Shown piece by piece: positions 3,847-27,116 of a DNA stretch of 64,000 bases (the first letter of the stretch is position 1; every line of letters begins with the position of its first letter). The DNA comes from Patescibacteria group bacterium. Lineage in GTDB: Bacteria > Patescibacteriota > UBA1384 > XYA2-FULL-43-10 > 1-14-0-10-43-13. Under the pieces are notes generated by a model. The model was not told the origin of the DNA. It was given only the letters and a program-made list of their open reading frames with translations, and searched no databases. The translations under genes were made by a program, and so were the position numbers. The stretch covers positions 128,929-192,928 of the forward strand of contig JBAYHC010000004.1 of NCBI GenBank assembly GCA_041666325.1. The letters are read 5' to 3'.

Positions 3847-5015
3847 AGGACGATAGTGCCACCACCAAGAACAATCTCTCCGTCGTAAAAAACAGCGGCT
3901 TGACCTGGAGTGATTGCTCGAACGGACTTGTCAAATCGTAGTTCATAGCTCATAGCTCGCCTGCCTGCATCGCCTGGAGCGAAGCGACTGCGGGCAGGTA
4001 GCTCGGGATTCACGCCCAAAATACAAGATTCAACACACGAAATGCGAGCCGGCACTGTCTCACTTCGGTACCTAATCTTTACGCCGATCACAGACGGAAT
4101 CACGGGTTTTTCTCCGATCCAATGAATGTTGCTAACTGTGGCCTGATCAGAAAATAAATCTTTTTCTTCGCCAACATAGACAATATTTTTCTCGATGTTT
4201 TTGGACACGACTAGATATGGCCCACCCCCCAACTTAATGTCCAGTCCATGACGCTGGCCGACCGTATAGTAGTAGACACCGTCATGCTCGCCAAGCTCTC
4301 GACCATCGATATGAATAATCCTTCCCTTCTCAGGCTTAATATAGTCCTTTAAAAAGTTCTTCATTTTGAGGGGACCGATGAAGCAAACACCTTGGCTGTC
4401 CTTCTTGGTCGCAGTTGATAGATCAAACTTCTCAGCCATCTTTCTGACCTCCGGCTTGGTATAGTCACCAACAGGGAAGATGGTCTGCGCCAGATGTCTC
4501 TGCTCCAAAACATACAAGAAGTAACTCTGATCCTTATTCTTGTCAGCCGCTTGCAGCAACTTGTAGCTACTGTTGCGATGCCCTTCCACCTCAGCCTCCT
4601 CGTTTTCCGCCTTGATACGTGCGTAGTGTCCAGTGGCGACAAAATTTGCACCCTCTGCTATCGCCTGGTCAAAAAACATGCCGAACTTAATTTCCTTGTT
4701 GCACATTAAGTCCGGGTTAGGGGTAATTCCACTCTTGTATGCCCCCACCATGTATTCTACGACCTTTTTTTCATACTGTTGGGTAAAGTCCCAGGTAAGT
4801 AGCGGAATTTCTAATTTCGCTGCAACGCGAGCGGCATCAGCCCTCTCCTCTTTCCACAGGCAATAATCAAGGCGGGATTCATCCCGCGAAGCTTCAGCGG
4901 AGCGGGACCAGAACTTCATAAAAACGCCAACAACAGAATAGCCCTGTTCCTTGAGCAATGCTGCTGCAACAGAACTATCAACCCCTCCGCTCATTGCGAC
5001 ATAAACCTTCTTCAT
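3843..5015 (-). CDS. mnmA: tRNA-specific 2-thiouridylase MnmA. It carries an in-frame insertion of a repeat element near the C-terminus.
   Basis: The N-terminal PP-loop is MKKVYVAMSGGVDSSVAA. The conserved C-terminal ...ITPGQAAVFYDGEIVLGGG motif is present. The inserted segment reads ELPARSRFAPGDAGRRAMSY and is encoded by the repeat copy at 3963-3998. Confidence 0.9.
   Translation of the reverse strand: MKKVYVAMSGGVDSSVAAALLKEQGYSVVGVFMKFWSRSAEASRDESRLDYCLWKEERADAARVAAKLEIPLLTWDFTQQYEKKVVEYMVGAYKSGITPNPDLMCNKEIKFGMFFDQAIAEGANFVATGHYARIKAENEEAEVEGHRNSSYKLLQAADKNKDQSYFLYVLEQRHLAQTIFPVGDYTKPEVRKMAEKFDLSTATKKDSQGVCFIGPLKMKNFLKDYIKPEKGRIIHIDGRELGEHDGVYYYTVGQRHGLDIKLGGGPYLVVSKNIEKNIVYVGEEKDLFSDQATVSNIHWIGEKPVIPSVIGVKIRYRSETVPARISCVESCILGVNPELPARSRFAPGDAGRRAMSYELRFDKSVRAITPGQAAVFYDGEIVLGGGTIVL
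3953..4005. repeat. Copy of the 36-bp core repeat GCCTGCATCGCCTGGAGCGAAGCGACTGCGGGCAGG. It lies inside mnmA and is flanked by tagctcg direct repeats.
   Basis: The core at 3963-3998 is identical to the cores at 27071-27106 and, in reverse complement, at 7266-7301 and 7312-7347. The flanking direct repeat is tagctcg...tagctcg. Confidence 0.8.
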
Positions 5016-5089
5016 CCGAAAAATTATACAGAATTTCTAGACTTTTGTCTACCAGGCCAAATACAAAAAAGAAGCCCCGGGAAAGGGGC

Positions 5090-5881
5090 TCAAACGGGTA
5101 AAATCAACGAGGCCAGCAAGAGGCCGATACCGAGATCCATTGCCAGCTTGGTGACAGAAATGGTTTTCGGGTGGCAATCTCTGCTCTCCTGGAGCTGGTG
5201 AATAGCTGGCCAAAACACAATGAACATAAACCAACGATGGCCCCTCAATATCAAGGCACCAAGCACCAACAAGGTTGCCAACCACAGCAGACATATGACA
5301 ATCTTCTTGGTTCGGTCTTCTCCTAGCCACTGAATCAACGTCCACTTGTATCCGGGATCATGTTCCCTATCATCAAAATCCTTAAGAATCTCCCTGGCAT
5401 GTATGGCCAAGAATGTACTAGCAAACAAAATCCACAAACTTGGATCAGTGTGCCCAACAAACACCGGAAGTAGGGCCGGCAGCGCAGCAGCGGTTGCTAC
5501 CGCCAAGTTGGGCAACAAAGGGATTTGCCTTACTGCCGAGTAACAAAGGCCAACCATGATCAAAATAATCATGGGTTGAGAAAAACGGCTTTCTTGCCTT
5601 AAGGCCAGTGCCACAAGCACAAGCGCGATCAACCACATTGCCGTAGCAAAGGCCAAAAAGAGCTGCGAGTGCTCGGAAGCAGTGGTTTTGCCTTTCTTGG
5701 CATCATGGTTGCGATCACAATAATCGTTCCAAACCATCGTCGCAGATGTTATAAGCATTGTTGCCAGAGACGGCAACCAAGTCAAAGACACACTAAGATT
5801 TGAAATCCTAAAGGCGGCAAGCACCAATGCGCCCGCCATGAAACAAACTGGCAATCGTAAGGCCTTGATGATTGGCTTCAT
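5090..5881 (-). CDS. UbiA-family polyprenyltransferase (integral membrane protein)
   Basis: The NDYCDRNHDAKK sequence matches the NDxxDxxxD motif of the UbiA family. The rest of the 263-aa product is multiple hydrophobic helices. Confidence 0.75.
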   Translation of the reverse strand: MKPIIKALRLPVCFMAGALVLAAFRISNLSVSLTWLPSLATMLITSATMVWNDYCDRNHDAKKGKTTASEHSQLFLAFATAMWLIALVLVALALRQESRFSQPMIILIMVGLCYSAVRQIPLLPNLAVATAAALPALLPVFVGHTDPSLWILFASTFLAIHAREILKDFDDREHDPGYKWTLIQWLGEDRTKKIVICLLWLATLLVLGALILRGHRWFMFIVFWPAIHQLQESRDCHPKTISVTKLAMDLGIGLLLASLILPV

Positions 5882-5971
5882 TCAGTGCCCCCTCTCTCTC
5901 CACTTCCACCACGCTAGTGGCGCAATCATATTAGCACAAATATCTCCAGCACACCCACACGCTAGGCAATA

Positions 5972-6000
5972 TTGACAGGACAGCATTATTTAGGTATTTT
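5972..6000 (+). promoter_or_regulatory. Candidate sigma70-type promoter for iscR: TTGACA, 17 bp spacer, TATTTT
   Basis: A TTGACA box at 5972-5977 is followed by a 17-bp spacer and then TATTTT at 5995-6000. This is about 50 bp upstream of the iscR ATG at 6048. Confidence 0.35.
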
Positions 6001-6005
6001 AATTG

Positions 6006-6022
6006 CGGACTATCTTAGTCCG
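6006..6022. promoter_or_regulatory. Perfect palindrome CGGACTA-tct-TAGTCCG. It is a candidate IscR/Rrf2 operator overlapping the iscR promoter.
   Basis: The inverted repeat was seen directly. Its GACT...AGTC half-sites resemble IscR type-1 sites. It lies between the putative -10 box and the iscR start codon. Confidence 0.4.
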
Positions 6023-6047
6023 TAATTTTTAAGAAAGCCGGCCAAGT

Positions 6048-6437
6048 ATGAGATTGTCGACAAAAACCTACTATGGGCTCCGAGCGATGACCAACTTAGC
6101 TCGCAAAGAAGAGGTCTCCCCGATTGCTGATATTTCTTTTGAAGAGGATATTCCTTTTGCTTTTCTTGAAAAGATCTTCCAGCAACTCAAGCGAGCAGGA
6201 TTAGTTAAATCAAAGATAGGATCGATGGGTGGATACGAGCTGGCCAGATCGCCCAAAGAAATAACGGCAGGACAGATCTTCGAAGCATTGGGCGAGGAGG
6301 TTTCGTCTTCGTTTTGCCCAGGCAACTCGAGCTGCCCCAAGTATGGCTCGTGCGGAACAAAGGATTTTTTATCCAAGTTAGAATCATCGATCGGCCAAAC
6401 ACTCGAATCAATTACATTGGAAAGGTTAATCGTCTAA
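6048..6437 (+). CDS. iscR: Rrf2-family transcriptional regulator (IscR-like)
   Basis: The N-terminus MRLSTKTYYGLRAMTNLA is typical of the Rrf2 HTH. A Cys cluster (CPGNSSCPKYGSC) is present. The gene sits immediately upstream of iscS. Confidence 0.8.
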   Translation: MRLSTKTYYGLRAMTNLARKEEVSPIADISFEEDIPFAFLEKIFQQLKRAGLVKSKIGSMGGYELARSPKEITAGQIFEALGEEVSSSFCPGNSSCPKYGSCGTKDFLSKLESSIGQTLESITLERLIV

Positions 6438-6438
6438 T

Positions 6439-7725
6439 ATGAATAAGATTTACCTTGATCACTCAGCCACAACGCCACTCGATCCAGCAGTACTAGCAGC
6501 AATGATGCCATTCTTCAGTGACGACTTTGGCAACCCGGGATCCCTGCACTCTTTTGGCGTCGAAGCCAAGAAAGCAGTCGTCGAAGCGCGCAAGAATATT
6601 GCCTCCTTTTTGGGTTGCGATGAAACTGAAATCACTTTTACCTCCGGCGGAAGTGAAAGTGATAATCTTGCAATAAGGGGAATAGTAGAAAGTAGAAGGG
6701 GGAAAGTAGAAGGGGGAAGCAAGCCGCATGTCGTCACCAGTGCATTCGAGCACAAGGCTGTGTTGGACACTGTCAAAGCACTGGAAAAATCAGGTGATAT
6801 CGAGGCTACTTACGTTCAGCCGGGACCCAATGGTGTCATTCAGAGTGAAGACGTTAAAGCTGAAATTAAAGACAATACCATTCTAATTTCAATCATGTAC
6901 GTCAACAATGAAATCGGCACCATTCAGCCAATCCGCGAGATCGGAAAACTGGTCAAGAAGATCAATGCAAGCAGACACCTTCTATCCTCTACTTTCTACC
7001 CTCTACTTTTTCACACCGATGCTGTACAAGCTGCCGAATTTTGTCCGATGAATGTTAACGACCTCGGTGTTGACCTTCTTACCATGACCGCCCACAAAAT
7101 TTATGGCCCGAAGGCGATTGGCTTGCTTTATGCCCGGAAGGGGACGCCGATCCTGCCGGAAATTACTGGCGGAGGCCAGGAAAGAGGATTTCGCGCAGGA
7201 ACAGAGAACGTTCCCGGCATTGTCGGATTCGCAGCCGCTGTTCAGAAAATACGAGATCCAAGATACCTGCCCGCAGTCGCTTCGCTCCAGGCGATGCAGG
7301 CGGACGAGATACCTGCCCGCAGTCGCTTCGCTCCAGGCGATGCAGGCGGACGAGATACGACGCTGCTGCGCGACAAACTGATCGATGGCATTTTGAATAA
7401 CATTCCAAACTCTATTCTTAACGGCGATCGAACACACCTGGTCCCCCATATTGCCAACATTAGCTTTGTTAATGCCGAAGGTGAAGCAATCCTGCTCAAT
7501 CTTGATTTCTTGGGCATTGCCGTCTCTACCGGTTCGGCTTGCACCTCCCGCACCCTCGAGCCCAGCCATGTCCTCTCCTCGATGGGAGTCAGACCAGAAA
7601 ACGCCCATGGTTCAATTCGCTTCTCACTTGGCCGCGAAACTACAGCAGAGGAGATAGACCAAGTTCTCGAGATATTGCCAGGCATTATCAACAAATTAAG
7701 AGCAATGAGTCCATTCAAGAGCTAA
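6439..7725 (+). CDS. iscS: Cysteine desulfurase IscS/NifS. It carries an in-frame tandem insertion of the 46-bp repeat unit.
   Basis: The PLP-binding lysine is in the HKIYGPKAIG context. The SGSACTS active-site loop and a GNPGSLH motif are present. The inserted peptide reads ...LPAVASLQAMQADEIPARSRFAPGDAGG... and is encoded at 7261-7356. Confidence 0.9.
   Translation: MNKIYLDHSATTPLDPAVLAAMMPFFSDDFGNPGSLHSFGVEAKKAVVEARKNIASFLGCDETEITFTSGGSESDNLAIRGIVESRRGKVEGGSKPHVVTSAFEHKAVLDTVKALEKSGDIEATYVQPGPNGVIQSEDVKAEIKDNTILISIMYVNNEIGTIQPIREIGKLVKKINASRHLLSSTFYPLLFHTDAVQAAEFCPMNVNDLGVDLLTMTAHKIYGPKAIGLLYARKGTPILPEITGGGQERGFRAGTENVPGIVGFAAAVQKIRDPRYLPAVASLQAMQADEIPARSRFAPGDAGGRDTTLLRDKLIDGILNNIPNSILNGDRTHLVPHIANISFVNAEGEAILLNLDFLGIAVSTGSACTSRTLEPSHVLSSMGVRPENAHGSIRFSLGRETTAEEIDQVLEILPGIINKLRAMSPFKS
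7261..7356. repeat. Two tandem copies of a 46-bp unit lying inside iscS. Each unit is the reverse complement of the 36-bp core plus a ggacg linker and an agatac flank. The two copies are read in different frames.
   Basis: The cores at 7266-7301 and 7312-7347 are identical to each other. They are the reverse complement of the cores at 3963-3998 and 27071-27106. Confidence 0.85.
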
Positions 7726-7749
7726 GCCACAATGGGCAATTCGTGGCTT

Positions 7750-7805
7750 GTAGTTCGTATTTCGGAAACACTATGCAGTAGCCATAAACGAAATACGAGA
7801 TACAA
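7750..7805. repeat. Hairpin-forming intergenic element with stems TTCGTATTTCG / CGAAATACGAG
   Basis: The inverted repeat was seen directly between the iscS stop codon and the rubredoxin start codon. It belongs to the TACGAAA motif family. Confidence 0.5.
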
Positions 7806-7848
7806 TACACAAGATTGAACGAACAAAAACAAGGAAGCTGTTATCCCA

Positions 7849-8043
7849 ATGAACAAGACTAACGTAATAAAGAAATATGTCTGTCCACCCTGCGGTTACA
7901 TCTACGATCCGGCGGTTGGGGACCCCGAGATCGGTATTGCACCAGGCACGCCCTTCTCAGATCTTCCCGATGATTGGCTCTGTCCGCTCTGCGGCGTCAC
8001 GAAAGCTGAATTTGTCGAAGAACATGAATTCTATGGAGATTAA
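7849..8043 (+). CDS. Rubredoxin
   Basis: The product has two C-x-x-C-G knuckles (CPPCGY and CPLCGV) with aromatic residues between them. It is 64 aa long. Confidence 0.85.
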
Positions 8044-8057
8044 TCTCTGCATCTCGC

Positions 8058-8103
8058 CTATTTGTAATTTCGTATTTTCGTTTAATTTGTAATTTAGTAG
8101 GAG
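8058..8103. repeat. Intergenic element that is partly homologous to the element arms at 30142-30182 and 15815-15858. The shared core is ttcgtattttcgtt...taatttgtaatttagtaggag.
   Basis: The sequence similarity was seen directly. It ends in a TAGGAG Shine-Dalgarno-like box ahead of iscU. Confidence 0.45.
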
Positions 8104-8113
8104 ATCTGGAAAC

Positions 8114-8593
8114 GTGGAACAAGTACAATACTCACAACAAGTCCTAGACCACTTCTTTAATCCCAGAAACGTGGGTGAGATTTCTAATGCTGACGGCATC
8201 GGCGAGGTTGGCAACCTTCGTTGCGGCGATGTTATGTATGTGTATATCAAAGTAGGCGGAAGGCCCCGACAAAGTCGGGATAAACTCCAGGCGGAAGGCG
8301 AGACGCTTAGCGCCACTGAAGGCCGCGCCAAGCGTGGCGGAAGTGAAGAAGAGTATATTGAAGATATCAAATTCAAAACTTTAGGCTGCGCCGCCGCTAT
8401 CGCCTCAACAAGCATGATGACCGAGCTTGTTAAGGGAAAATCACTTGAGGATGCGATGAAAGTAACGCGCGACGATATCAATGAAGCCCTGGGGATTCTT
8501 CCCAAACAAAAATACCACTGCTCCATATTATCGGCAGACGGTATTCGCAAGGCGGTTGAGAACTATAGGGCAAGCAAAGCGGTAGGGCGGTAA
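8114..8593 (+). CDS. iscU: Fe-S cluster scaffold protein IscU/NifU. It contains a roughly 30-aa in-frame insertion inside its conserved core.
   Basis: The conserved Cys motifs are present: RCGDVM, KTLGCAAAIAS and KYHCSIL. Residues about 48-79 (GGRPRQSRDKLQAEGETLSATEGRAKRGGSEE) interrupt the conserved KV-x-IEDxKFKT segment. Confidence 0.85.
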   Translation: MEQVQYSQQVLDHFFNPRNVGEISNADGIGEVGNLRCGDVMYVYIKVGGRPRQSRDKLQAEGETLSATEGRAKRGGSEEEYIEDIKFKTLGCAAAIASTSMMTELVKGKSLEDAMKVTRDDINEALGILPKQKYHCSILSADGIRKAVENYRASKAVGR

Positions 8594-8638
8594 AGCAGTA
8601 GGGTAATAGTAGGTTTTTTTCTTATAACCTTACTAGCC

Positions 8639-10924
8639 TTATCCTGGCCATTCGGCGATCATGATGGACTCTGAAAGTGATGGATAAACCTCGCGTAGAT
8701 CCTGCCACACCGCCTCTGTCACAAATGGCATGAAGGGATGAAGCATTACCAGCGTTTCCGACAGAACACTCAAGAGAACTCTTCTGGTGTTGTTGTTCAG
8801 CTCGGCCGTAACATCCTCGCCAAGTTGCCCTTTGGATGCCTCGATATAGACATCGGCAAACGTGTGCCAGAAATAGTCATAGAGAAGTTCGCCGGCAAGT
8901 GAAAATTTAAATTTGTTAAGGTGTTCTGTCACCTTTTTCTTTACTTCCTCATGTTGTTTTAGGATGTCCCTGTCAGCGTCAGTCAACAGTCCACCGTTGA
9001 TTTTTAGATCAGAAACAATCGTTTGACCCAATTCGCCACTCTTTAGATCGCCCTCTGACGCTCGCAACATAACATAGCGAGAGGCGTTCCAAATTTTATT
9101 AGAGAAATTACGAAAACCCTTAATTTTGCCCTCGCCCACAGGTATGTCTTGACCGGGAGTAGATCCCACGGTCAGCGCCATACGGATAGCATCAGTGCCA
9201 TATTTCGGAATCAGGTCGAGCGGATCGAGCGCGTTGCCCAACGATTTGCTCATTTTGCGATTATGCTCGTCTCGAACCAATCCGTGAAAATAAACGGTCT
9301 CAAATGGCGCCTTGCCGGTAAACTCAAGGCCGAACATGATCATCCTCGCTACCCAGAAAAAGATAATGTCATAGGCAGTTTCCATCACAGTTGTTGGGTA
9401 AAAGTAATTGTAGTCACATGTGGTCATGCCCGGAGCATAGGGAAGGGGGTATTCGCACTTTTTGCTATCAATATTGTCGGGCCATCCCAGTGTTGAGAAA
9501 GGCCAGAGACCGGATGAGAACCAAGTATCCAAAACATCGGGGTCCTGCACCCAACCGGCGCCATCAGGCGCTTGCATGCCAACAAAAACTTCCTCCTCTC
9601 CCTTTTCATTTTTCTTATACCAAACAGGAATCTGGTGCCCCCACCAGAGTTGGCGCGAGATACACCAGTCACGAATATTGTCCATCCAGTGAAAATATAT
9701 CTTGTCGAAACGCTCAGGAATAATCTTGATTGTGCCATCTTCCACAACCTTCTTGGCCTTCTCGGCCAAAGGCCTCATCTTAACAAACCACTGCTTGGAC
9801 GGCAGCGGCTCAACTGCACCGCCGCAACGATAACAAACGCTTAGATTATTAAGGTATTCATCCTCTTTTTCGAGCAAATTGTTGCAAGAGAGCCAGGCAA
9901 TCAACTTTTCCTTTGCTTCGGTAACCTTTAGGCCAGTATAATTCTCTCCGGCCTCATCAGTCATACGGCCCTCTTCATTGATAACTTTAATAACCGGAAG
10001 ATCATGTTCCTCTGCCATGCGCCAGTCAACCATAGAGTGAGCAGGTGTGACACCAACAGCGCCGGTACCAAACTTGGCGTCAACAGCCCGATCCGCGACA
10101 ACCTTGATCTGTCGCTTGTTTCCGTCTATCTCAACATCAAAACTTTTACCAATATATCTTTGATAGCGTTTATCTGAAGGATTTACGGCCACGGCCGTAT
10201 CGCCAAGCTTCGTCTCCGGTCTGGTTGTTGCGATAGTAATCGGAAAATTCTTGTCGTATTTGAAATAGTATAGCTTGGATTTTTGTTCAACATGCTCAAC
10301 CTCATCATCGGCGATAGCTGTGTGACACCTTGGGCACCAGTTAACAATATATTCACCTCGATAGATGAGGCCTTTGCCATATAAATCGACAAATGCCCTC
10401 CGAACAGCAAGACTTAAGCCATCATCAAGCGTAAACCGCTCTCTCGACCAATCACAGGAGGCACCGAGACGACGTATCTGAGAGGTAATGATGTCGCCAT
10501 ACTTTCCTTTCCACTCCCAAACCTTCTCGACGAACTTCTCACGACCCAAATCGTTCTTATTTATCCCCTCTTTTCGTAGGGCTTTGTCGACAACGGTCTG
10601 AGTTGCTATACCAGCATGATCAGTGCCCGGCAGCCAAAGTGTTGGCTCTCCAAGGAGGCGATGGTAACGAGCCATAATATCCTCAACTGTCACAACCATG
10701 CCATGGCCCATGTGAAGCTTACCCGTAACGTTGGGTGGGGGCATTGATATCACAAAAGGCTTACCGTTGACTTCGCGATCATAGGCTAGCTGGCCGAGAA
10801 CTTTGCCACTATTGCCTTTCATGTTTATCTCTGGTTTAAAATAGCCGGAGCTTTCCCACTTTTGGTAAATCTTCTCCTCAAATTCCTTCGGCTCCCAGGT
10901 TTTTTCGATTGTTTTCTTTGCCAT
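8639..10924 (-). CDS. valS: Valine--tRNA ligase. It is a compact 761-aa form.
   Basis: The HIGH-class motif is PPPNVTGKLHMGHG and the KMSKS motif is NRKMSKSLGN. An editing-domain-like middle region is present. The N-terminal motif matches ValRS rather than IleRS or LeuRS. Confidence 0.8.
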   Translation of the reverse strand: MAKKTIEKTWEPKEFEEKIYQKWESSGYFKPEINMKGNSGKVLGQLAYDREVNGKPFVISMPPPNVTGKLHMGHGMVVTVEDIMARYHRLLGEPTLWLPGTDHAGIATQTVVDKALRKEGINKNDLGREKFVEKVWEWKGKYGDIITSQIRRLGASCDWSRERFTLDDGLSLAVRRAFVDLYGKGLIYRGEYIVNWCPRCHTAIADDEVEHVEQKSKLYYFKYDKNFPITIATTRPETKLGDTAVAVNPSDKRYQRYIGKSFDVEIDGNKRQIKVVADRAVDAKFGTGAVGVTPAHSMVDWRMAEEHDLPVIKVINEEGRMTDEAGENYTGLKVTEAKEKLIAWLSCNNLLEKEDEYLNNLSVCYRCGGAVEPLPSKQWFVKMRPLAEKAKKVVEDGTIKIIPERFDKIYFHWMDNIRDWCISRQLWWGHQIPVWYKKNEKGEEEVFVGMQAPDGAGWVQDPDVLDTWFSSGLWPFSTLGWPDNIDSKKCEYPLPYAPGMTTCDYNYFYPTTVMETAYDIIFFWVARMIMFGLEFTGKAPFETVYFHGLVRDEHNRKMSKSLGNALDPLDLIPKYGTDAIRMALTVGSTPGQDIPVGEGKIKGFRNFSNKIWNASRYVMLRASEGDLKSGELGQTIVSDLKINGGLLTDADRDILKQHEEVKKKVTEHLNKFKFSLAGELLYDYFWHTFADVYIEASKGQLGEDVTAELNNNTRRVLLSVLSETLVMLHPFMPFVTEAVWQDLREVYPSLSESIMIAEWPG

Positions 10925-11109
10925 AATTAAGCCTTATTTTTGTTAGTGCTATCTGTCCTTGATAATCAAAACTTAGCACAATTACGATCGAATTCCTAGT
11001 ACCACCCCATCATAATGATTGTGTATATTTCGCAGTACTAGTGCCGTGAGAATTCAGGGAAAGCGCAGTGGTGTTGACGGCGCGAAGCCTTGCGAAGAGC
11101 GAAGTAGCA

Positions 11110-11529
11110 CTAGGCATCGACCATATTATTACGAACAAATTTTTTGACAGCAGAGAGTGTCTCGTCCTTGAATTGAGCAGGAGAGGCTGCCACCCAGACA
11201 GCAAACTCATATAGCTCCTCGTTTTCGACCTGTATCCATTTCCCGTTTTTGGCCAAGAAGTGGAAGAGGGTCGTGATAGCAATACGCTTGTTTCCATTCT
11301 GAAAGGGGTGGTTTTTGATCATCAAATAAAAAAGGATGGAGGATTGATCGATAATGCCTCGATAAAGCGCACGCTTATTGAAGGTCTGAAAAGGGGCAGC
11401 AAGACAGCTCTCTAAAACATTAGGAAAACGAGAGGTAAAGTCGGGGATTGGCTCATCCCAAGCAAGCAACTTCTTGGCAAGACGATAGGAAATCATCTCA
11501 ACCTCTTGTAAAGAAACCATGAAGATCAT
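11110..11529 (-). CDS. Doc/Fic-family toxin. It carries an HPFQNGNKR motif.
   Basis: The ...KNHPFQNGNKRIAITTLF... sequence matches the Doc H-x-F-x-(D/N)-G-N-K-R active-site motif. The gene overlaps the upstream small HTH gene by 4 bp. Confidence 0.65.
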   Translation of the reverse strand: MIFMVSLQEVEMISYRLAKKLLAWDEPIPDFTSRFPNVLESCLAAPFQTFNKRALYRGIIDQSSILFYLMIKNHPFQNGNKRIAITTLFHFLAKNGKWIQVENEELYEFAVWVAASPAQFKDETLSAVKKFVRNNMVDA

Positions 11530-12001: not shown

Positions 12002-13204
12002 TCACAAGGCCATATTTGAGTCGATTGTGACTTGATTCCAGGACTTTACGTCACCTTTGACCGCATGATAATAGCCTGCTAGAGCTATCATGGCGGCATT
12101 GTCGCCGCATAGGTGAATTGGAGGGACGTAGAGATCAGGCTTAATCTCCAGGCTATTTACGGCGTTTGCTAGGCTGTGGCGGAGATGCGTGTTTGCCGCT
12201 ACTCCGCCTGCAAGGATAATAGTTATTGGCTCGTATTTCTGCACGGCTTTCATCGTTTTAGCGACCAAAACATCAACTGCGGCATCCTCAAAGGCAGCTG
12301 CAATGCTAGCCTTGAGGTCAGCACTTAAGTGGCTTTTTTCCCTCACTTCCCGCAACACTGCCGTCTTTAAGCCGGAGAAAGAGAAATTAAATGTTCCATC
12401 ATTAAGCAGTGGCCGCGGAAAACTAACCGCATTCCTGGCCGCGGCTTGGCTAGTCCTGTATTTGCCGGCCAATTTCGAAACTGCGGGCCCTCCGGGGTAA
12501 CCTATACCTAATAGTTTTGCCACTTTATCGAAGGCTTCGCCAGCAGCGTCGTCGAGGGTTTGACCAATAATTTCGTATTTCCCGTGATCTCTCATCAATA
12601 TCAGGGATGTATGGCCACCCGAAACCACCAGCGCAAGGGCAGGGAAGCTGATTTCACGTAGCAGGTAGCATGTATCATGTATCGTGCCTTGTTTGTTTTG
12701 CTCTTTTCGGTTTTGGGCTGTTGGATCCTTACTTTGGATTTTCGATTTCGGATTTTGGATTTCCTCTGCGGCAGCAGAGTATATATGGCCCTCAATGTGA
12801 TGAATTGGAACTATGGGCAAATCGCAGGCATAGGCAAGTGACTTTGCCGCATTAAAGCCAACCAGGAGCGAGCCAATCAATCCTGGGCCAGAAGTAACGG
12901 CAATATGGCTAATTTTGTGGTGCAAAGAATTGATCGCTCCTTGAATATCTGGGTGATCACTGAAACCAGCCTGCAAAAGTGCCTCGGCTACAACCGGCAC
13001 AATTGCTTCCATGTGCGCTCTAGAGGCAACCTCCGGCACGATACCGCCGGTTTTTGCATGCAGGTCAACCTGAGAAGAAACAATGTTCGACAAAATGACA
13101 GGCGGGTTAACGCCATCGCCCGTCACTACTGCGGCTGCGGTCTCGTCGCAAGATGACTCAATTCCCAAAATGATATATTTTTTCTCTGTGTCTATGTGTG
13201 TCAT
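12002..13204 (-). CDS. tsaD: tRNA N6-adenosine threonylcarbamoyltransferase TsaD (Kae1/Gcp). It carries a roughly 35-aa low-complexity in-frame insertion.
   Basis: Conserved TsaD motifs are present: GIESSCDET, HHIEGH, VVSGGHT and DDAAGEAFDK. The insertion QNPKSKIQSKDPTAQNRKEQNKQGTIHDTCYLLRE is encoded by (gattttc)-type repeats at 12652-12760. Confidence 0.9.
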   Translation of the reverse strand: MTHIDTEKKYIILGIESSCDETAAAVVTGDGVNPPVILSNIVSSQVDLHAKTGGIVPEVASRAHMEAIVPVVAEALLQAGFSDHPDIQGAINSLHHKISHIAVTSGPGLIGSLLVGFNAAKSLAYACDLPIVPIHHIEGHIYSAAAEEIQNPKSKIQSKDPTAQNRKEQNKQGTIHDTCYLLREISFPALALVVSGGHTSLILMRDHGKYEIIGQTLDDAAGEAFDKVAKLLGIGYPGGPAVSKLAGKYRTSQAAARNAVSFPRPLLNDGTFNFSFSGLKTAVLREVREKSHLSADLKASIAAAFEDAAVDVLVAKTMKAVQKYEPITIILAGGVAANTHLRHSLANAVNSLEIKPDLYVPPIHLCGDNAAMIALAGYYHAVKGDVKSWNQVTIDSNMAL

Positions 13205-13403: not shown

Positions 13404-14345
13404 ATGAATAACTCAATCTTCCAAACCGAATCGTGGGCAGAATTTAAACTTTCCACCGGTTACTCGGACAAATACCGGCTGGATGATGTTTTGGTTTTGG
13501 ACAAGAAATTACCACTACTCCGGTCGATGCTTTACTCGCCGATGGTAAGCGCAAGTCAGGAATCGAGGCTTCTAAACCAGGAGTTTATCAGTAGCATCAG
13601 GTCGCTGGCAACAAAAACAAATGCAATCTTTTATCGCCTAGAACTGGGCGTCCCCATCGACGAGATACGAGATACGAGATACGAGATACGAAAGCTCGGC
13701 TTTCGCAAGTCTTTCGAGGAGATGCAGCCCGAGCACACTCTCGTCCTCGACATAAATAATACCGAGGAAGATATTCTTGCCCAGATGAAGCCAAAGGGCA
13801 GATACAATATCAAGATTGCCAGCAAAAACCAAATCGAGATTATGGTCTCAGACAAACCGGGCCAAGAGCTGGACCACTTCTATGAGCTTTACGAAACAAT
13901 GGCAAGGCGCCAAAATATCTCCCGCAGAAACAAAGCATACTTCGAGGCTCTACTTGAAATCATGTCTAGATTGGGGTATATTAGAGTATACAACGCCGTG
14001 GCCACAGTTGAGAACAAGAAGCATGTTTTGGCAGCTGCGATCATTTGCTTCTATGGCGAGCGAGCAACGTATCTCTTCGGCGGTTCAAGCAATGAACACC
14101 GAAATCTCATGGCTCCATATCTTCTCCATTGGCAGATAATCAAAGACGCCAAGCAGATTGGATGTAGCGAATACGACCTTTTCGGTGTTGCGCCGAATGA
14201 CGACGAAAAGCACCCATGGGCTGGTGTAACACGCTTCAAAAACCAATTTGGCGGCAAACGAGTTGATCTTGTCGGCAGTTGGGATCTAGTGTTCAAGCCA
14301 ACTGAATACGAGATATTTAAATTTGTCGAAAAAATTAGACGCTAG
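13404..14345 (+). CDS. FemAB-family peptidyltransferase (peptidoglycan interpeptide bridge formation). It contains an in-frame (GAGATAC)4 heptamer run.
   Basis: The C-terminal motif ...GGSSNEHRNLMAPYLLHWQIIKDAKQIGCSEYDLFGV... is typical of the FemAB/FemX family. The heptamer repeat at 13662-13689 encodes ...DEIRDTRYEIRK... Confidence 0.75.
   Translation: MNNSIFQTESWAEFKLSTGYSDKYRLDDVLVLDKKLPLLRSMLYSPMVSASQESRLLNQEFISSIRSLATKTNAIFYRLELGVPIDEIRDTRYEIRKLGFRKSFEEMQPEHTLVLDINNTEEDILAQMKPKGRYNIKIASKNQIEIMVSDKPGQELDHFYELYETMARRQNISRRNKAYFEALLEIMSRLGYIRVYNAVATVENKKHVLAAAIICFYGERATYLFGGSSNEHRNLMAPYLLHWQIIKDAKQIGCSEYDLFGVAPNDDEKHPWAGVTRFKNQFGGKRVDLVGSWDLVFKPTEYEIFKFVEKIRR
13662..13689. repeat. Tandem heptanucleotide repeat (GAGATAC)x4 lying inside the femAB-like gene
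   Basis: The sequence cgagatacgagatacgagatacgagatacgaaa was seen directly. Confidence 0.9.
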
Positions 14346-15747: not shown

Positions 15748-15780
15748 ACGCCGCCCCTACAAACTTACGAATCACTCGAA

Positions 15781-15858
15781 ATTACCAAATTACGAAACTA
15801 CCAATAACGGTATTTGTATTTTCGTATTTTCGTTTGAATTCGTACTTTGGTAGGGGAT
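15781..15858. repeat. Palindromic intergenic element. Its arms are taccaaattacgaaact... and ...gaattcgtactttggtagg. It is related to the elements at 30051-30182 and 8058-8103.
   Basis: The inverted repeat and the similarity to the other copies were seen directly. Confidence 0.5.
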
Positions 15859-16166: not shown

Positions 16167-16217
16167 CCCACACGAGAGGGCTAGAAACAAAAAACCAACC
16201 CAATGACTAATCTTGCG

Positions 16218-17228
16218 TTATTGATTATCATTCTCGTGTCTGGGTTCTGGGCTAGGAACCTGAAGGTCAACACCAACAGGTTTTTTTGTTTGCAAGGTTT
16301 TGCCATGAAAAGCTTGATGGACTTCGCGCAGGTGCTGATCGGTCACATGGGTATAAACCTGGGTTGTCGTGATTGAAGAGTGACCGAGCAGTGATTGAAC
16401 ACTGCGGATATCAGCACCAGCCATCAAAAGGTCCGTAGCGAATGAGTGACGTAGCGTATGGGGCGAGACATGCTTCAATACTCCAGCCTTTTTAGCACAG
16501 CGCTCAACTATGCGCTGAACTGTTCTGACTGAGATGCGATCATTCTTGGGTGAAATAAAGAGTGGTTCGCTTGTCTTACCGGAGAGTGAACCCTCCTCAG
16601 GTTTCGTGAATCCTCGATTCTTAATGTATTGCTCCAACCACTGTTTGGCCTCGCCCGAGAGGAAAACTACACGCAGCTTTCGACCCTTGCCCAGCACAGC
16701 TATTTCACCACTTTCGAGATTTATATCATCAAGGTCCAAACTTACTAACTCCGATACTCGCATTCCAGTCGAGAAGAGAACCGCCAGGATTGCCCGGTCG
16801 CGCAAGCCCACCAACTTGCTTGTATCGAGTGAATTAAAGATCGAAGAAACTTCTCCTCCCTGTAAAAAATTTATCTCTCGGTCACCAATCTTGGCGAGAG
16901 AAACCTTTTCTGGAGAAAGAGAATTTACGCCTCGAAAAGCGAGGTAGCGCAAAAAAGCACGGAGAGAAATTACGTGATAATTCTGAGTCACTTTCTTTAG
17001 ACCGTGACCGGCGGGCTCCTTGAGCCGATTTACGTACAGCTTGTACTGTCTGACTATCTCCTGGTCAATCATCGACGGCACTAATTGCTCGCCCGACCTC
17101 TGAGTCTTGAGCCACTCGAGAAAACGACCGAGATATCGATCATAATTTTCGATAGTCAGAGCAGACTGGCCTTTGTCTAATTCGCAGTACTCGAGGAACT
17201 CTCTTTTTAGATCGAATAAATCCTTCAT
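16218..17228 (-). CDS. xerC: Tyrosine site-specific recombinase (XerC/XerD family). The likely start is the internal ATG at 17228. The track start at 17303 would read through 15-bp tandem repeats.
   Basis: The C-terminal catalytic region is ...HTLRHSFATDLLMAGADIRSVQSLLGHSSITTTQVYTHV. The N-terminal core-binding domain is present. In the long form the N-terminus would read GHLVLSRLVLSHLVLSHLVLSH, which is encoded by repeats. Confidence 0.8.
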   Translation of the reverse strand: MKDLFDLKREFLEYCELDKGQSALTIENYDRYLGRFLEWLKTQRSGEQLVPSMIDQEIVRQYKLYVNRLKEPAGHGLKKVTQNYHVISLRAFLRYLAFRGVNSLSPEKVSLAKIGDREINFLQGGEVSSIFNSLDTSKLVGLRDRAILAVLFSTGMRVSELVSLDLDDINLESGEIAVLGKGRKLRVVFLSGEAKQWLEQYIKNRGFTKPEEGSLSGKTSEPLFISPKNDRISVRTVQRIVERCAKKAGVLKHVSPHTLRHSFATDLLMAGADIRSVQSLLGHSSITTTQVYTHVTDQHLREVHQAFHGKTLQTKKPVGVDLQVPSPEPRHENDNQ

Positions 17229-17303
17229 AAAAAAGTGCGAAAGTACTAAGTGTGAAAGTACTAAGTGTGAAAGCACCAAGCGTGAAAGTACTAAGTGCCC
17301 CAC
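17229..17303. repeat. About four tandem copies of a 15-16 bp unit (GTGAAAGTACTAAGT) immediately 5' of the recombinase ATG
   Basis: The sequence gtgcgaaagtactaagtgtgaaagtactaagtgtgaaagcaccaagcgtgaaagtactaagtg was seen directly. Related motifs occur at 49320-49465. Confidence 0.8.
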
Positions 17304-18174: not shown

Positions 18175-19023
18175 ATGATCGAAATCGGAAGGTCTTTTAT
18201 TATTGGGGCGATTCAGGGCATTGCTGAATTTTTGCCGATCTCCTCTTCTGGTCACCTTGTGCTTCTTCCCTATATTTTCAAGTGGGATTATCAGGGCCTG
18301 GCTTTTGATGTTGCCCTCCACTTTGGCACAGTGGTAGCACTGGTTGCCTACTTCTGGCGCGATTGGCTTGCGCTTTTCTTTAGCGCGGTAAGAATACGAA
18401 ATACAAAATATAAAATACGGGAATACCCAGACAACCTGCTCTGGCAAATTATTGTCGCCTCAATCCCCGCAGCAATGGTTGGCCTACTAATCAATGGCTA
18501 TGTCGAAAAATACCTGCACTCTCCTGCACTCCTGGCCTTCAATCTGATTTTCTTCGGTTGGCTGCTCTGGTTCGTAGACAAGAGGGCCAAGGCAAAATAC
18601 GATCTTCAACAAGCTCAGGTCGGCCTGAGTGGCAATAGACCGCCCGAAATACGAAATACGAGATACTCGCATTTGTTCCTCATGGGCATCGCCCAGTCTG
18701 TCGCCTTGGTCCCTGGCGTTTCTCGCTCCGGTATCACAATGACCGCCGGACGATCTCTGGGCTTAAGCAGAGAAAATTCAGCTAGGCTTTCCTTTTTGTT
18801 GGGCACCCCTGCGATGATCGGCGCGTTTATTGTCGAGTTTAAAGATATCGATAAGGGAGGCCTAAGCGCAGCATTCTTGATCGGCGTTATCTCAGCAGCT
18901 GTTTTTGGTTTTATCGCTATTAAATATTTGCTACAATACTTAAAGAAAAGCGACTTCTCAATTTTTTTGTGGTATAGGATCGCTCTGGCCATAATGGTTC
19001 TGGCCCTATATTTCACAAGATAA
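18175..19023 (+). CDS. uppP: Undecaprenyl-diphosphatase UppP (BacA). It carries two in-frame inserts encoded by RAAATAC heptamer runs.
   Basis: The UppP signature is ...EFLPISSSGHL.... The inserts ...VRIRNTKYKIREYPDN... (18391-18428) and ...PPEIRNTRYSHL... (18646-18666) coincide with the heptamer repeats. Confidence 0.85.
   Translation: MIEIGRSFIIGAIQGIAEFLPISSSGHLVLLPYIFKWDYQGLAFDVALHFGTVVALVAYFWRDWLALFFSAVRIRNTKYKIREYPDNLLWQIIVASIPAAMVGLLINGYVEKYLHSPALLAFNLIFFGWLLWFVDKRAKAKYDLQQAQVGLSGNRPPEIRNTRYSHLFLMGIAQSVALVPGVSRSGITMTAGRSLGLSRENSARLSFLLGTPAMIGAFIVEFKDIDKGGLSAAFLIGVISAAVFGFIAIKYLLQYLKKSDFSIFLWYRIALAIMVLALYFTR
18391..18428. repeat. Heptamer-like run (gaatac gaaatac aaaatat aaaatac gggaatac) lying inside uppP
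   Basis: Seen directly in the sequence. Confidence 0.75.
18646..18666. repeat. Heptamer run GAAATAC GAAATAC GAGATAC lying inside uppP
   Basis: Seen directly in the sequence. Confidence 0.85.
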
Positions 19024-19135: not shown

Positions 19136-19795
19136 ATGAATTCGGTGACAGACCAAGCAAAAGTTAGCCAGACATCAGATCGGCCAATAATCTACTGGCT
19201 GGTTTTTAAGTGGCTGCTAGTTATTGCCGTCCTCGTAGCCGTCCTTTACCTTGGCACGCTCCCTGCCCGAAGCAAGCTATCCACACAACATCTCTACCGA
19301 GGCGACAAACTGCTCGAGGAGAGAAAATATCTTTCTGCCCGATTGGAATACAGAAAGGCCCTTGTTCTCGACAAAAACAACACCAAAGCCGCAGAGCACG
19401 AATTCCTTGCTAATGAAGCGTCCAGCGATATTACGAAATTAGAGAAATTTTTGCGTGACAGAGGAGCGGACAACCAATTAAACACAATGAAGGAAGCCAA
19501 GGCTGTTCCGGACAATGAGGTTGCAGCCGCACAGACATCAAGGGAACTGCTCGAGGCGGGCGAGTATCAGCTCGCAATCATCCCGGCGAAAACAGCCGTC
19601 CAGATGGACAAATCTTACCGCGATGGTTGGCTGTATCTTAGCATTGCTAGCCTCGAGTCCTCTCGACAACTGGAGATAGCGCAAGAAACCCGACAAGAAT
19701 ATCTGGACCAGGCTAGGCTCGCCCTTGAAAAAGCTGCGATTGCCGATCCGTCATATGAACCGATCAAACAAATAGAAAAAGAACTAAACTCTTAG
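19136..19795 (+). CDS. Membrane-anchored hypothetical protein with TPR-like helical repeats
   Basis: An N-terminal TM helix (WLVFKWLLVIAVLVAVLYL) is followed by a helical repeat region. No catalytic motifs were recognised. Confidence 0.4.
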   Translation: MNSVTDQAKVSQTSDRPIIYWLVFKWLLVIAVLVAVLYLGTLPARSKLSTQHLYRGDKLLEERKYLSARLEYRKALVLDKNNTKAAEHEFLANEASSDITKLEKFLRDRGADNQLNTMKEAKAVPDNEVAAAQTSRELLEAGEYQLAIIPAKTAVQMDKSYRDGWLYLSIASLESSRQLEIAQETRQEYLDQARLALEKAAIADPSYEPIKQIEKELNS

Positions 19796-19810
19796 TACGA
19801 GCGAGGGAAG

Positions 19811-21805: not shown

Positions 21806-21817
21806 CGTCACCTTACG

Positions 21818-24694: not shown

Positions 24695-24729
24695 ATTCGT
24701 CAAAAATCGAATAAACACGGAGACGTTTT

Positions 24730-26367
24730 ATGACAGACGCAGCAGCAGAACAACCCGTCCCACCCCCGGTAACACCAGAGGCAGGAAGCGAAGGACAAGA
24801 AGCGGCAAAAGCGGCTGAGTTTTATTATCTTTCGGAGGAGGAGATTGCTCAAGCCATCGCCGAAGCCAAGAACCGCCCCATTCCGCCGGAGAAAGCACAA
24901 AGAATCAGTCGAGACCTGGACGCTGTTGAAAAAATTCGACAGGATATTATCGGATTGGAAGCGCTATCACCGGAAGAAAGAGATAAAACCCTTAGAACCA
25001 TGTCCGGCGCGCCGAATGTCCGCCCCGTCTTTGATGTTCTTCTCGGAAAACCAAGCCAACAGCCGGCTGAGGTCGTCTCCACCGAACAACATCCGCGACA
25101 ACGGCTAATAGAAGACCTGAGAACGCGATTTGCCGGACAAGAAATAGGCGCTGACACATGGGAAGAGGTCGAGGAGTTCGTTGCAGAGAACACCGAGCTA
25201 TTCGACACGCTAGAAGCCAAAATACAAGAGCTGAGCAGAAAACCTGAATACAGTCGAATAGAAGTCAAGAAGAAGACCATCGAGATTTGCCTCCTGCAAT
25301 CTGTTGTCAACGGACATCTCACGAAGGAAGATTTGAAAACTGTCCTCGAGGGCGGAGTCCGCATCTTGTCCAATGAGGAGATCTCGCAGCTTGCCAAAAC
25401 CGAGCAAAGCTACGAGGGCATCATGTATTATGATCTGGGTAACCGGGCGCTCATTATTTCGGAGAGCGCTTTGGTTGACGAGTACCGCATGAAGAATGCG
25501 GAAACCGGACAAGAGCGAATAATTGAGATCGACATAGAACACTCCATAAACCACGAAATTGCCCACGGCATAGTTGAGAGGGGATTACTAACCTCCGGCG
25601 AGAAAAGAGCTCGCAAGGAGCTGCGTGAGGGCAAAGAGGGGGTAGAAATTCCACCCGGCCTGCTCTCCCTCGCCATGTCAGTCATTGCTGCGGCCGGCGA
25701 GGTGAAAGAATACATGGTTTACCATTCAAGAAATGTCTTGAATGGCCTAGAAAAGCTAGGAGACATTCCGGCAAAGGACAGACAAAACGCTCAGGTTAAC
25801 GCAGCCATAGAGATAATTACTGACTATACAGCCATCTTTATGCAATCTGATGGCAAGGAAGAGAATTTTGTCGCCAAGTGTCTCGCCAAAACAGACACCG
25901 ACTTGCTTGTGAATCATCTTGCCAGGCGCTTCGGAATCAATGAAACTGACCCCGCGATAGTCAGGCAAAGGATCGGAGAAAAGATTAATGCGTTTAACGA
26001 GACGGACGAGAATGAGAAGAAGAGCATTCTCGCGCAGTACCCGGAGCTAGCCAAGGTCAACACTATGTTTCGAAAATTCTACGGGCTACTATATCAAGGA
26101 CGCGATGAGCTGGATAGAACCGAGGAAAAAATTGGCAAACGACAAGGCAAGCTCAAGGCGATGGGCAAGATCGGAACAGCAGCTGATGATAACGATGAGC
26201 GTACACTATTGCCGGATGAGGCAGCGTCTTTCCCGCAACAGAAAAACGAACAAAATGGTCAGCAAGAGGGCGGCGCTGTGAAGGAAGGTCTTGCAAGTGT
26301 TTTCCAATTTGTCCAGGCCTTTGCCGAAGAAGTAGGCGGGGGAGTAAATCAGGCCGTGTCACAATAG
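24730..26367 (+). CDS. Hypothetical soluble protein (545 aa) containing an HExxH motif (IEHSINHEIAHG). It may be a metallopeptidase-like protein.
   Basis: No confident family match was found. The HEIAH motif was seen in the translation. The N-terminus is Pro/Glu-rich. Confidence 0.35.
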   Translation: MTDAAAEQPVPPPVTPEAGSEGQEAAKAAEFYYLSEEEIAQAIAEAKNRPIPPEKAQRISRDLDAVEKIRQDIIGLEALSPEERDKTLRTMSGAPNVRPVFDVLLGKPSQQPAEVVSTEQHPRQRLIEDLRTRFAGQEIGADTWEEVEEFVAENTELFDTLEAKIQELSRKPEYSRIEVKKKTIEICLLQSVVNGHLTKEDLKTVLEGGVRILSNEEISQLAKTEQSYEGIMYYDLGNRALIISESALVDEYRMKNAETGQERIIEIDIEHSINHEIAHGIVERGLLTSGEKRARKELREGKEGVEIPPGLLSLAMSVIAAAGEVKEYMVYHSRNVLNGLEKLGDIPAKDRQNAQVNAAIEIITDYTAIFMQSDGKEENFVAKCLAKTDTDLLVNHLARRFGINETDPAIVRQRIGEKINAFNETDENEKKSILAQYPELAKVNTMFRKFYGLLYQGRDELDRTEEKIGKRQGKLKAMGKIGTAADDNDERTLLPDEAASFPQQKNEQNGQQEGGAVKEGLASVFQFVQAFAEEVGGGVNQAVSQ

Positions 26368-26432
26368 CATCTCAGGTCACAAAGCAAGTAGGCATGTAGG
26401 CTAGTAGGCAGAGTTGCACCACTGAAGAGTTA

Positions 26433-26493
26433 TTACTAGCTTACTAGCTTACTAGCTTACTAGCTTACTAGCTTACTAGCTTACTAGCTTATT
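26433..26493. repeat. Microsatellite (TTACTAGC)x7 with a partial eighth unit
   Basis: Seen directly in the sequence. The unit is related to the pervasive GCTTAC / CTAGTAAG intergenic motif family. Confidence 0.9.
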
Positions 26494-26587
26494 TTCTTTA
26501 TTGCTCTCATTACAGAACATTGTTATAATAGTTTCGAATCGTTAACTTCCTTATATTGGAAGTGGTTTTGGAAACTCGCGAGGGGAA

Positions 26588-26986
26588 ATGCGCTACAAGG
26601 TGCCACAAAATATCGACATGCAAGACAGAATCATTGGCCCACTGACGATGATTCAGTTTATCTATGCAATTGTTGGGACAGGCGCTGCCTACTCACTCTA
26701 TATGACCCTGCCAAAGCCACTCAATCTAATCGCGGCTGTTCCCGTTCTAATTTTTACAATTTGTATTGTCTTTATCAAAATTAACGAGAGACCCTTCCTA
26801 AATTTCTTCTTAGCCATGATAGAGTTTCTCTCCGCCCCCAAAAAACGCGTCTGGCATCACGGCAGTGTCGACAACCTTAAGGTTATTATTTACAGCAACA
26901 AAGACAACAGCAAACAGAAAGCTGCCGTCAAACATGTTTCCGAGGATGAAATCAAAAAACTAGCAAAAAAATTAGACGAGAATTAA
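26588..26986 (+). CDS. PrgI / VirB3-like small T4SS membrane protein (132 aa, two TM helices)
   Basis: The N-terminus ...YKVPQNIDMQDRIIGPLTMIQFIY... is followed by two hydrophobic helices. It sits upstream of the VirB4 homologue, as PrgI and TcpD do in Gram-positive T4SS loci. Confidence 0.5.
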   Translation: MRYKVPQNIDMQDRIIGPLTMIQFIYAIVGTGAAYSLYMTLPKPLNLIAAVPVLIFTICIVFIKINERPFLNFFLAMIEFLSAPKKRVWHHGSVDNLKVIIYSNKDNSKQKAAVKHVSEDEIKKLAKKLDEN

Positions 26987-27060
26987 TAGGCGTAAGCAAT
27001 CAGGCGCAAGGCGAAAGACCTTGACTCAGTTACATTAATTGCAATTGACTTACGACTGAC

Positions 27061-27116
27061 GCCTCTCGCCCGCCTGCATCGCCTGGAGCGAAGCGACTGC
27101 GGGCAGGCCTCTCACA
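27061..27116. repeat. Intergenic copy of the 36-bp core repeat (27071-27106), flanked by cctctc direct repeats
   Basis: The core is identical to the one at 3963-3998. The flanks are cctctc...cctctc. The spurious minus-strand ORF 27050..27373 reads through it. Confidence 0.8.

Follow-up and report, generated by a model that had tools for sequence, protein, structure and literature searches.

A 39-nt palindromic repeat lying in frame in mnmA and iscS of a Patescibacterium, probably a miniature mobile element

Introduction

How can one short palindrome lie within two unrelated genes for essential-type enzymes and leave both reading frames open? The question is raised by a 64-kb stretch of a 193-kb contig from a metagenome-assembled genome of Patescibacteria (ENA sample ERZ27249449; NCBI proteins MFA5926735–40 and MFA6532281–86), hereafter called the window, in which a GC-rich repeat has one copy in mnmA, two in iscS and one in an intergenic spacer. 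Palindromic repeats that lie in frame belong to textbook knowledge on Rickettsia, and intragenic repetitive extragenic palindromes (REPs) have been reported for a few Proteobacteria and Verrucomicrobia. A sequence-only reading of the window had described the repeat as a 46-bp insertion with what looked like target-site duplication and had likened it to the Rickettsia palindromic elements (RPEs). The analysis reported here indicates that the repeat is probably a miniature mobile element of 39 nt. On balance we favour a new family of tiny non-autonomous palindromic repeats of Patescibacteria, akin to REPs and to miniature transposable elements with inverted repeats (MITEs), which spread to unrelated sites and behaves in the manner of RPEs.

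Results

The 36-nt core GCCTGCATCGCCTGGAGCGAAGCGACTGCGGGCAGG is present in four exact copies in the window, with 0 mismatches and all 36/36 positions identical, as had been recognized before; dinucleotide-preserving shuffles yielded 0.00 copies. Three of the sites agree with the coordinates given earlier, and the fourth, at 27072–27107, had been placed one base off. Searching the window with a 15-nt arm at up to 3 mismatches gave no extra copies or half-sites, and the 9.4 kb of contig upstream of the window held no further copy. The repeating unit is a 39-nt imperfect palindrome, CCTGCCCGCAGTCGCTTCGCTCCAGGCGATGCAGGC followed by AGG, GGA or GGG when read on the strand beginning CCTGCCC, and it is bracketed by 7-nt direct repeats that are specific to each locus. 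The 46-bp unit of the sequence-only reading is better described as this 39-nt element plus one 7-nt repeat. Coordinates are collected in Table 1.

Table 1. Positions of the element, its flanking heptamers, host genes, period-7 and intergenic arrays, and transposase genes of related loci (window coordinates unless a locus is named)
Feature	Position	Strand	Basis or remark
mnmA, tRNA 2-thiouridine synthase, 390 aa, host of copy 1	3843–5015	-	open reading frame list
Element copy 1, 39 nt, coding strand CCTGCCCGCAGTCGCTTCGCTCCAGGCGATGCAGGCAGG	3960–3998	-	covariance model 67.5 bits
Heptamer CGAGCTA, 5′ of copy 1 on coding strand	3999–4005	-	
Heptamers CGAGCTA, TGAGCTA, TGAACTA, 3′ of copy 1 on coding strand	3939–3959	-	
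Gene for an iscS/nifS-type cysteine desulfurase of 428 aa, hosting copies 2 and 3	6439–7725	+	PF00266
Degenerate heptamers CGAGATC, CAAGATA, 5′ of copy 2	7252–7265	+	
Element copy 2, 39 nt, ends GGA	7266–7304	+	covariance model 66.3 bits
Heptamer CGAGATA between copies 2 and 3	7305–7311	+	
Element copy 3, 39 nt, same as copy 2	7312–7350	+	
Heptamer CGAGATA, 3′ of copy 3	7351–7357	+	
Element copy 4, 39 nt, ends GGG	27069–27107	-	covariance model 69.3 bits
Heptamer CGAGAGG, 3′ of copy 4 (element orientation)	27062–27068	-	
Heptamer TGAGAGG, 5′ of copy 4 (element orientation)	27108–27114	-	
36-nt core, site 1	3963–3998	+	
36-nt core, site 2	7266–7301	-	
36-nt core, site 3	7312–7347	-	
36-nt core, site 4	27072–27107	+	
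Period-7 arrays in open reading frames	13660–13691, 12654–12763, 18393–18666, 6684–6718, 6980–7009		
Intergenic arrays	8060–8099, 15779–15833, 26384–26491, 30074–30168, 50375–50469, 60123–60160, 60519–60576, 63984–64000		
Y1_Tnp gene, locus L014	15656–16385		
Y1_Tnp gene, locus L022	about 9950–10640		
Y1_Tnp gene, locus L023	about 9900–10690		

The element is predicted to fold into a stem of 13–14 bp, interrupted by one bulge and closed by a 10-nt loop. Its folding energy is -22 to -24 kcal/mol as RNA (z about -3.5) and -11 to -13 kcal/mol as DNA, and the hairpin is more stable than those of shuffled sequences (z = -3.1 to -3.6). The earlier view of a repeated, hairpin-forming mini-element is borne out. 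Its G+C content is 74%, against 47% for the window. A scan with Rfam matched no family to the element, two tRNAs being the sole matches; no terminator-like site was called at copy 4, and the element lacks terminator features. The possibility that it is designed to be open in all six frames was rejected, as 33% of shuffles of the same composition are open likewise.

In mnmA, which was assigned through homologues carrying PF03054, PF20259 and PF20258, the coding strand at 3939–4005 reads CGAGCTA-(39 nt)-CGAGCTA-TGAGCTA-TGAACTA, and the flanks on the forward strand are TAGCTCG/TAGCTCG. Copy 1 is read in frame 1 as PARSRFAPGDAGR. Relative to one native heptamer the net insert is 39 + 21 = 60 nt (20 aa), and the added peptide, ELPARSRFAPGDAGRRAMSY, occupies MnmA residues 338–357. 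Downstream of it, straight reading keeps the conserved ELRFDKSVRAITPGQ.

In iscS the stretch 7252–7357 reads CGAGATC-CAAGATA-(39 nt)-CGAGATA-(39 nt)-CGAGATA, where the pair of copies forms a 46-nt tandem repeat in direct orientation with units 100% identical. Copy 2 is read in frame 2 as LPAVASLQAMQAD and copy 3 in frame 1 as PARSRFAPGDAGG, which agrees with the earlier remark that the tandem copies use two frames. The net insert is 2 × 39 + 21 = 99 nt (33 aa), and residues 274–306 of IscS are the added peptide PRYLPAVASLQAMQADEIPARSRFAPGDAGGRD. As translation of the open reading frames (ORFs) shows, both genes stay open and the extra peptides quoted in the sequence-only reading are correct. 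Peptides predicted to span the junctions of the inserts include NPELPAR, FAPGDAGR and SLQAMQADEIPAR.

How the frame survives an insertion of 46 bp had been left as a puzzle, for which an insertion size differing by one base or a compensating indel was proposed. A hidden 1-nt indel is not required. The element of 39 nt equals 13 codons, and four heptamers (28 nt) equal 7 nt modulo 3; in-frame products within genes thus require a heptamer number of 1 modulo 3, and in both genes that number is four.

Copy 4 lies between a PrgI-family gene (26588–26986) and an ORF at 27126, antisense to both. This non-coding copy has a single heptamer on each side, with forward-strand flanks CCTCTCG/CCTCTCA.

Two smaller repeats were seen in the same host genes. 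A second small insert in the N-terminal region of mnmA (4872–4907, minus strand) has TCCCGC...TCCCGC 30 nt apart around a palindrome and encodes RSAEASRDES, and relatives have other inserts at that loop. In iscS, two 14-nt duplications share one motif, AAAGTAGA(A/G)GG, in inverse orientation to each other.

The nearest relatives, which are 64–69% identical in MnmA and IscS, are without the inserted peptides in protein alignments, as an insertion would have it. The core was not found in the syntenic loci L014–L018 even at up to 9 mismatches. The homologous iscS site of L014 holds a different palindrome, CCCCCCCTTTCTAAGGGGGGG. Among 70 IscS and 68 MnmA homologues, inserts concentrate in the same few loops, where unrelated inserts reach about 68 residues. 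Comparison of L014 with L015, two near-identical assemblies, revealed no repeat-number polymorphism, only point differences and a gap.

AlphaFold2 models built with homologue alignments are confident as a whole, with a predicted local distance difference test score (pLDDT) of 87.5 for IscS and 86.5 for MnmA. In IscS, pLDDT falls below 50 at residues 278–304, coinciding with the insert, which lies between helices 258–272 and 307–321 where the large domain meets the small one. In MnmA it falls below 50 at 331–349, overlapping the insert, which lies between strands 321–327 and 357–366 within the C-terminal barrel. Structures in the PDB match both proteins (cysteine desulfurases, E = 7.7e-102; MnmA, E = 5.7e-89) with alignments split into two blocks around the inserts, having about 25 residues fewer there. 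A placement in surface loops is supported, since both inserts fall in low-confidence loops between well-predicted elements, and the inserted peptides are predicted by the models to be floppy, disordered loops.

The core is not confined to the window. Degenerate pattern scans, look-ups and a covariance model made from six distinct sequences placed the family in six contigs besides that of the window, the majority evidently Patescibacterial, both within and between genes. The variant CCTGCCCGCAGACGCTTCGCGTCAAGCGATGCAGGCGGG is found at a different site in iscS of another Patescibacterium (L001), in tsaD (L003) and downstream of metG (L010); further variants are those of L011 (intergenic) and L012. 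All of these variants are recovered by the covariance model at 62–69 bits, and the model also detected a diverged 40-nt copy in L023/L024 that gives an S1-domain gene its C-terminus and stop. When only the termini were used, 16 hairpin-forming matches were obtained versus 0–1 in shuffles, among them 21-nt mini-versions within recG and iscS of L020. A scan of genome representatives gave one true match (L003), and a metagenome scan gave three true matches and seven chance matches of high GC; viral contigs, scanned with two patterns, gave no match. Throughout the family the inverted termini CCTGCCCGC...GCAGGCGGG are conserved and the centre is variable. Nine of 13 stem pairs are invariant, none has compensatory changes, and the changes fall mostly in the loop. 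Conserved ends, absent covariation and a variable centre together fit recognition of the ends by a protein such as a transposase or recombinase. All intragenic copies (mnmA and iscS of the window, L001, L003, L023) are in sense orientation; with five independent loci this bias is suggestive only.

A separate palindromic element of about 100 nt, GTCATTCTGAACGAAG...CTCAGGATGAC, is in frame in mnmA of L021 (770–2053) and iscS of L020 (1530–2978), where it encodes HSERSEES...PQDD. Its presence in other Patescibacteria implies that several element families insert in frame in this phylum.

Direct repeats of 6–7 nt flank the element at all three loci of the window, as had been reported. The flanking heptamers co-vary by locus (CGAGCTA/CGAGCTA, CGAGATA/CGAGATA, GAGAGG/GAGAGG), yet all contain GAG; the leftmost iscS flank, CAAGATA, is degenerate, and the same heptamer is the 5′ flank of the L010 copy. 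Heptamers at separate loci are alike (xGAGxxx), and CGAGATA is 2.7-fold over-represented in the window. The likeness, the flank shared with L010 and the enrichment suggest either that certain targets are preferred or that arrays and element have a shared origin. Upstream of the intergenic copy of L011 there are four heptamers, and in L023 two heptamers precede the copy and none follows. The window as a whole has 38 identical 7-mers at distance 7 and 60 at distance 8, versus 4.6 expected in each case. A generic screen for direct repeat-hairpin-direct repeat units was not specific (84 matches versus 40–64 in shuffles).

Discussion

The copies of the element share one core at unrelated sites, to which the element has probably spread. 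A trans-acting enzyme would recognize the conserved termini and insert the element preferentially at heptamers of the CGAG type, either making a 7-bp target duplication or entering an existing heptamer array. Within genes, only products in which the added length as a whole is divisible by three would survive. The exact 46-nt tandem of iscS could have arisen by slippage from one flanking repeat to the other, and the gain or loss of a single heptamer could restore the frame. The element would be translated, forming a surface loop that the protein tolerates; no benefit to the host has been demonstrated.

Whether the flanks represent target duplication or older arrays is answered differently by different observations. 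Duplication is favoured by the flank pairs that co-vary by locus, by the single heptamer on each side of copy 4 and by the exact iscS tandem. The arrays-first order is favoured by element-free period-7 arrays of about 3–4 copies, which are frequent in ORFs of the window and of a relative. Both origins predict four heptamers at the genic loci. Of the target-site duplication proposed earlier, the locus-matched repeats bracketing the element stand, but the element-free arrays give them a second reading.

Several observations weigh against insertion of a mobile element with target duplication. Heptamer arrays of four copies without the element are common in ORFs (femAB at 13660, tsaD, bacA), and the apparent duplication may thus be the periodicity of pre-existing arrays. 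The homologous iscS site of L016 is itself a four-copy heptamer array (CAAATGT) with no palindrome, from which it follows that the element may have entered an array already in place. The flanking repeats are perfect in this genome only, being incomplete in L001, L010 and L011 and missing from L003, L012 and L023. On both routes the frame is lost at an intermediate stage, except if the 39-nt unit came in with no duplication. The comparison with empty sites is made with relatives of 64–69% identity, none of them a close strain, and copies were counted across about 73 kb of this genome. That all six frames of the element are open carries no significance at this GC content. Lastly, the window and the fetched loci yielded neither a transposase nor a parent insertion sequence whose ends match those of the element.

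The first candidate for the missing enzyme is a REP-associated tyrosine transposase (RAYT), a Y1 HUH transposase. By this account the element is of the REP/REPIN type and is moved in single-stranded form by a RAYT whose gene lies in another part of the genome, a proposal that we regard as unlikely. A GC-rich imperfect palindrome of 39 nt is within the size range of REPs, and intragenic REPs, including dimers that encode 20–30 aa, are documented (PMC3733652). In L014, the closest relative, the syntenic block has a RAYT-like Y1_Tnp gene that lies between tsaD and femAB, and genes of this type are widespread across Patescibacteria, 60–76% identical to one another. Moreover, GGGGACTGTCCCC, a palindrome of L014 related to the flanks of its Y1_Tnp gene, is in frame in mnmA, iscS and nifU, so that a parallel system exists there, but with a different repeat. 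The Y1_Tnp genes of L014, L022 and L023/L024 are always bracketed by inverted GGGGACGGTTCTC / GAGAACCGTCCCC and not by the 36-nt core, and a link of RAYT to the 39-nt element finds no support in the Y1_Tnp homologue search and these three contexts. No Y1_Tnp is present in the roughly 73 kb read of this genome, a constant GTAG/CGTC end tag is wanting, the iscS copies form a direct and not an inverted dimer, and HUH transposition leaves no target duplication.

Alternatively, the palindrome could have spread with no transposition at all, through hairpin-stimulated slippage or template switching and gene conversion among heptamer arrays. The unusual richness of the window in 7- and 8-nt tandem arrays, with the enrichment of CGAGATA, would suit such a process; so would the direct repeat-palindrome-direct repeat units that enclose unrelated palindromes in iscU, bacA and the N-terminus of mnmA, and the 46-nt iscS tandem is a classic product of slippage. 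We nevertheless consider it improbable, as near-identical cores occur at non-orthologous sites in distant genomes of 40% GC, and in the window the heptamers around the one 36-nt core are of three kinds, for which reason homology of the flanks cannot have guided the copying.

An equally poor prospect is a motif selected by the host, such as a DNA-binding site or a structured RNA, whose identity is kept by selection and not by recent spread. The identity of the four copies, the invariance of stems across genera with no compensatory changes, and the sense orientation of every intragenic copy are all what it would predict. The copies are, however, read in different frames in unrelated genes, occur between genes and are antisense at copy 4, while no Rfam family or terminator feature attaches to them and orthologues function without the element.

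Two further explanations are hardly credible. Matched direct repeats around a strong hairpin superficially resemble the take-off and landing sites of translational bypass (T4 gene 60 or the byp elements of yeast mitochondria), or removal from mRNA might be imagined, but a hop in mnmA would land on the second CTA before a TGA, unbroken translation leaves the conserved frame downstream intact here and likewise in iscS, and no ribozyme or intron family was matched. Metagenome assemblies can collapse or misjoin short repeats, but MnmA, IscS and IscU with the inserts are recorded also for a second contig (193,034 bp) and in two NCBI accession series, the frames are preserved, and variants occur in unrelated ENA, NCBI and JGI data sets. 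A CRISPR repeat, an attC site and a loxP/FRT scar were also considered and dropped, having no matching feature.

A new family of tiny non-autonomous repeats remains our preferred explanation, and its kinship with known systems can be stated as follows. RPEs are about 100–150 bp in Rickettsia (Ogata et al. 2000, 2002, as cited in PMC10969869). According to that source they too are palindromic repeats in frame in unrelated housekeeping genes, translated and compatible with the fold, and lie between genes as well. The present element differs in being 39 nt (21 nt in the mini-versions), Patescibacterial and set in heptamer arrays, and the likeness is one of description. Of the analogy drawn in the sequence-only reading, in-frame insertion in unrelated ORFs at fold-compatible sites holds, but the size of RPEs is not matched.

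Intragenic REPs of the GTAG/CGTC superfamilies, including RPE-4 and RPE-6, are GC-rich imperfect palindromes of 20–40 bp that encode about 13–30 aa as singles or dimers in ORFs, the dimers 20–30 aa, and several families may coexist in one genome (Di Nocera et al. 2013, PMC3733652). The GTAG/CGTC end tag is a feature of REPs that the element does not have, its junctions varying between copies; GTAG is seen at the mnmA copy alone, where the flank supplies it. REPs are mostly extragenic and their dimers inverted, whereas the dimer here is direct and three of the four copies are intragenic. RAYT-like genes of this clade carry another flanking motif, and no RAYT link was found for the element.

MITEs that fuse in frame with ORFs include the QMITEs of Coxiella (PMC5896051) and ERIC, BOX and Correia (reviewed in PMC10969869). 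MITEs share with the element terminal inverted repeats, short flanking direct repeats, a non-coding nature, multiple copies and occasional in-frame fusions. They are roughly 100–400 bp, some with a known parent insertion sequence, whereas no parent of the 39-nt element was found in the window or the fetched loci. With inverted termini, no coding capacity and multiple copies, the element agrees with a MITE except in an unambiguous target duplication and a known parent, and it would be among the smallest MITE-like elements described. It is best filed as a new family of an already known kind, the protein-coding palindromic mini-repeats. No description of such elements in Patescibacteria was found in the searchable full-text literature, the coverage of which is incomplete, so that this is absence of evidence only.

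The case offers a very small example with a clean anatomy and an explicit arithmetic rule for the preservation of frame. It also touches a broader pattern, in which the same loops of IscS, MnmA and IscU hold different heptamer arrays or palindromes in related genomes. A tentative extension, possible rather than likely, is that the element is part of a clade-wide addition of palindromes and 7-nt arrays at permissive loops of core enzymes (MnmA, IscS, IscU, TsaD, FemAB, BacA), where the arrays would be footprints or landing pads of an insertion enzyme and slippage would restore the frame. If true, such a process would amount to a mode of loop expansion not described before and could explain many lineage-specific inserts in the proteins of these reduced genomes. 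The case itself matters for the annotation of proteins from candidate phyla, since inserts of this type could be mistaken for domain differences, and for structure prediction and the genome dynamics of organisms not yet cultured.

Other repeats and neighbouring genes

The iscU/nifU ORF (8114–8593) contains GGCGGAAG three times (8255, 8290, 8336) in the region 8255–8343. These copies bracket two unrelated palindromes, CCCGACAAAGTCGGG and ACGCTTAGCGCC...GCGCCAAGCGT, and the repeat units of 35 + 46 nt add 81 nt in frame. At the same iscU/nifU site, L014 has (GAAAGGC)x3.6 and doublets of the palindrome GGGGACTGTCCCC.

Period-7 arrays of about 3–4 copies are in frame in femAB (ACGAGAT x4.6), tsaD, bacA and iscS, and several adjoin small hairpins. 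Most clear arrays between ORFs have a period of 8, not 7. Three pairs of octamer arrays are inverted and could form long hairpins, for instance GCAAGTAG x3.4 versus TTACTAGC x7.4. At 60154–60513 (minus strand) lies a gene for a four-helix protein of the 23S-rRNA-intervening-sequence / bAvd-like type (PF05635, E = 2.4e-40). It is bracketed by 35-nt inverted octamer arrays (60125–60159 and 60513–60547) and resembles a small cassette.

The regions 21818–44237 and 44978–49251 contain a cluster resembling a type IV secretion system, with PrgI, a VirB4/TraG-type ATPase, and CHAP and M23 hydrolases; a TrbL/VirB6 match is weak and sub-threshold. The cluster is followed by an ORF of 3173 aa with no Pfam match, and a dnaA-dnaN-recF cluster, an arrangement usual beside a replication origin, adjoins it.

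Two further repeats were recorded. At 17233–17297 a 15-nt repeat is present 4.3 times (AAGTGTGAAAGTACT) at the 5′ end of a tyrosine-integrase ORF (16218–17303, minus strand). A 47-nt tandem repeat at 63071–63164 immediately adjoins tRNA-Ser(tga) (62975–63064); its two copies share 74% identity, and both contain the hairpin GCCCTACTTTAGAGGGC.

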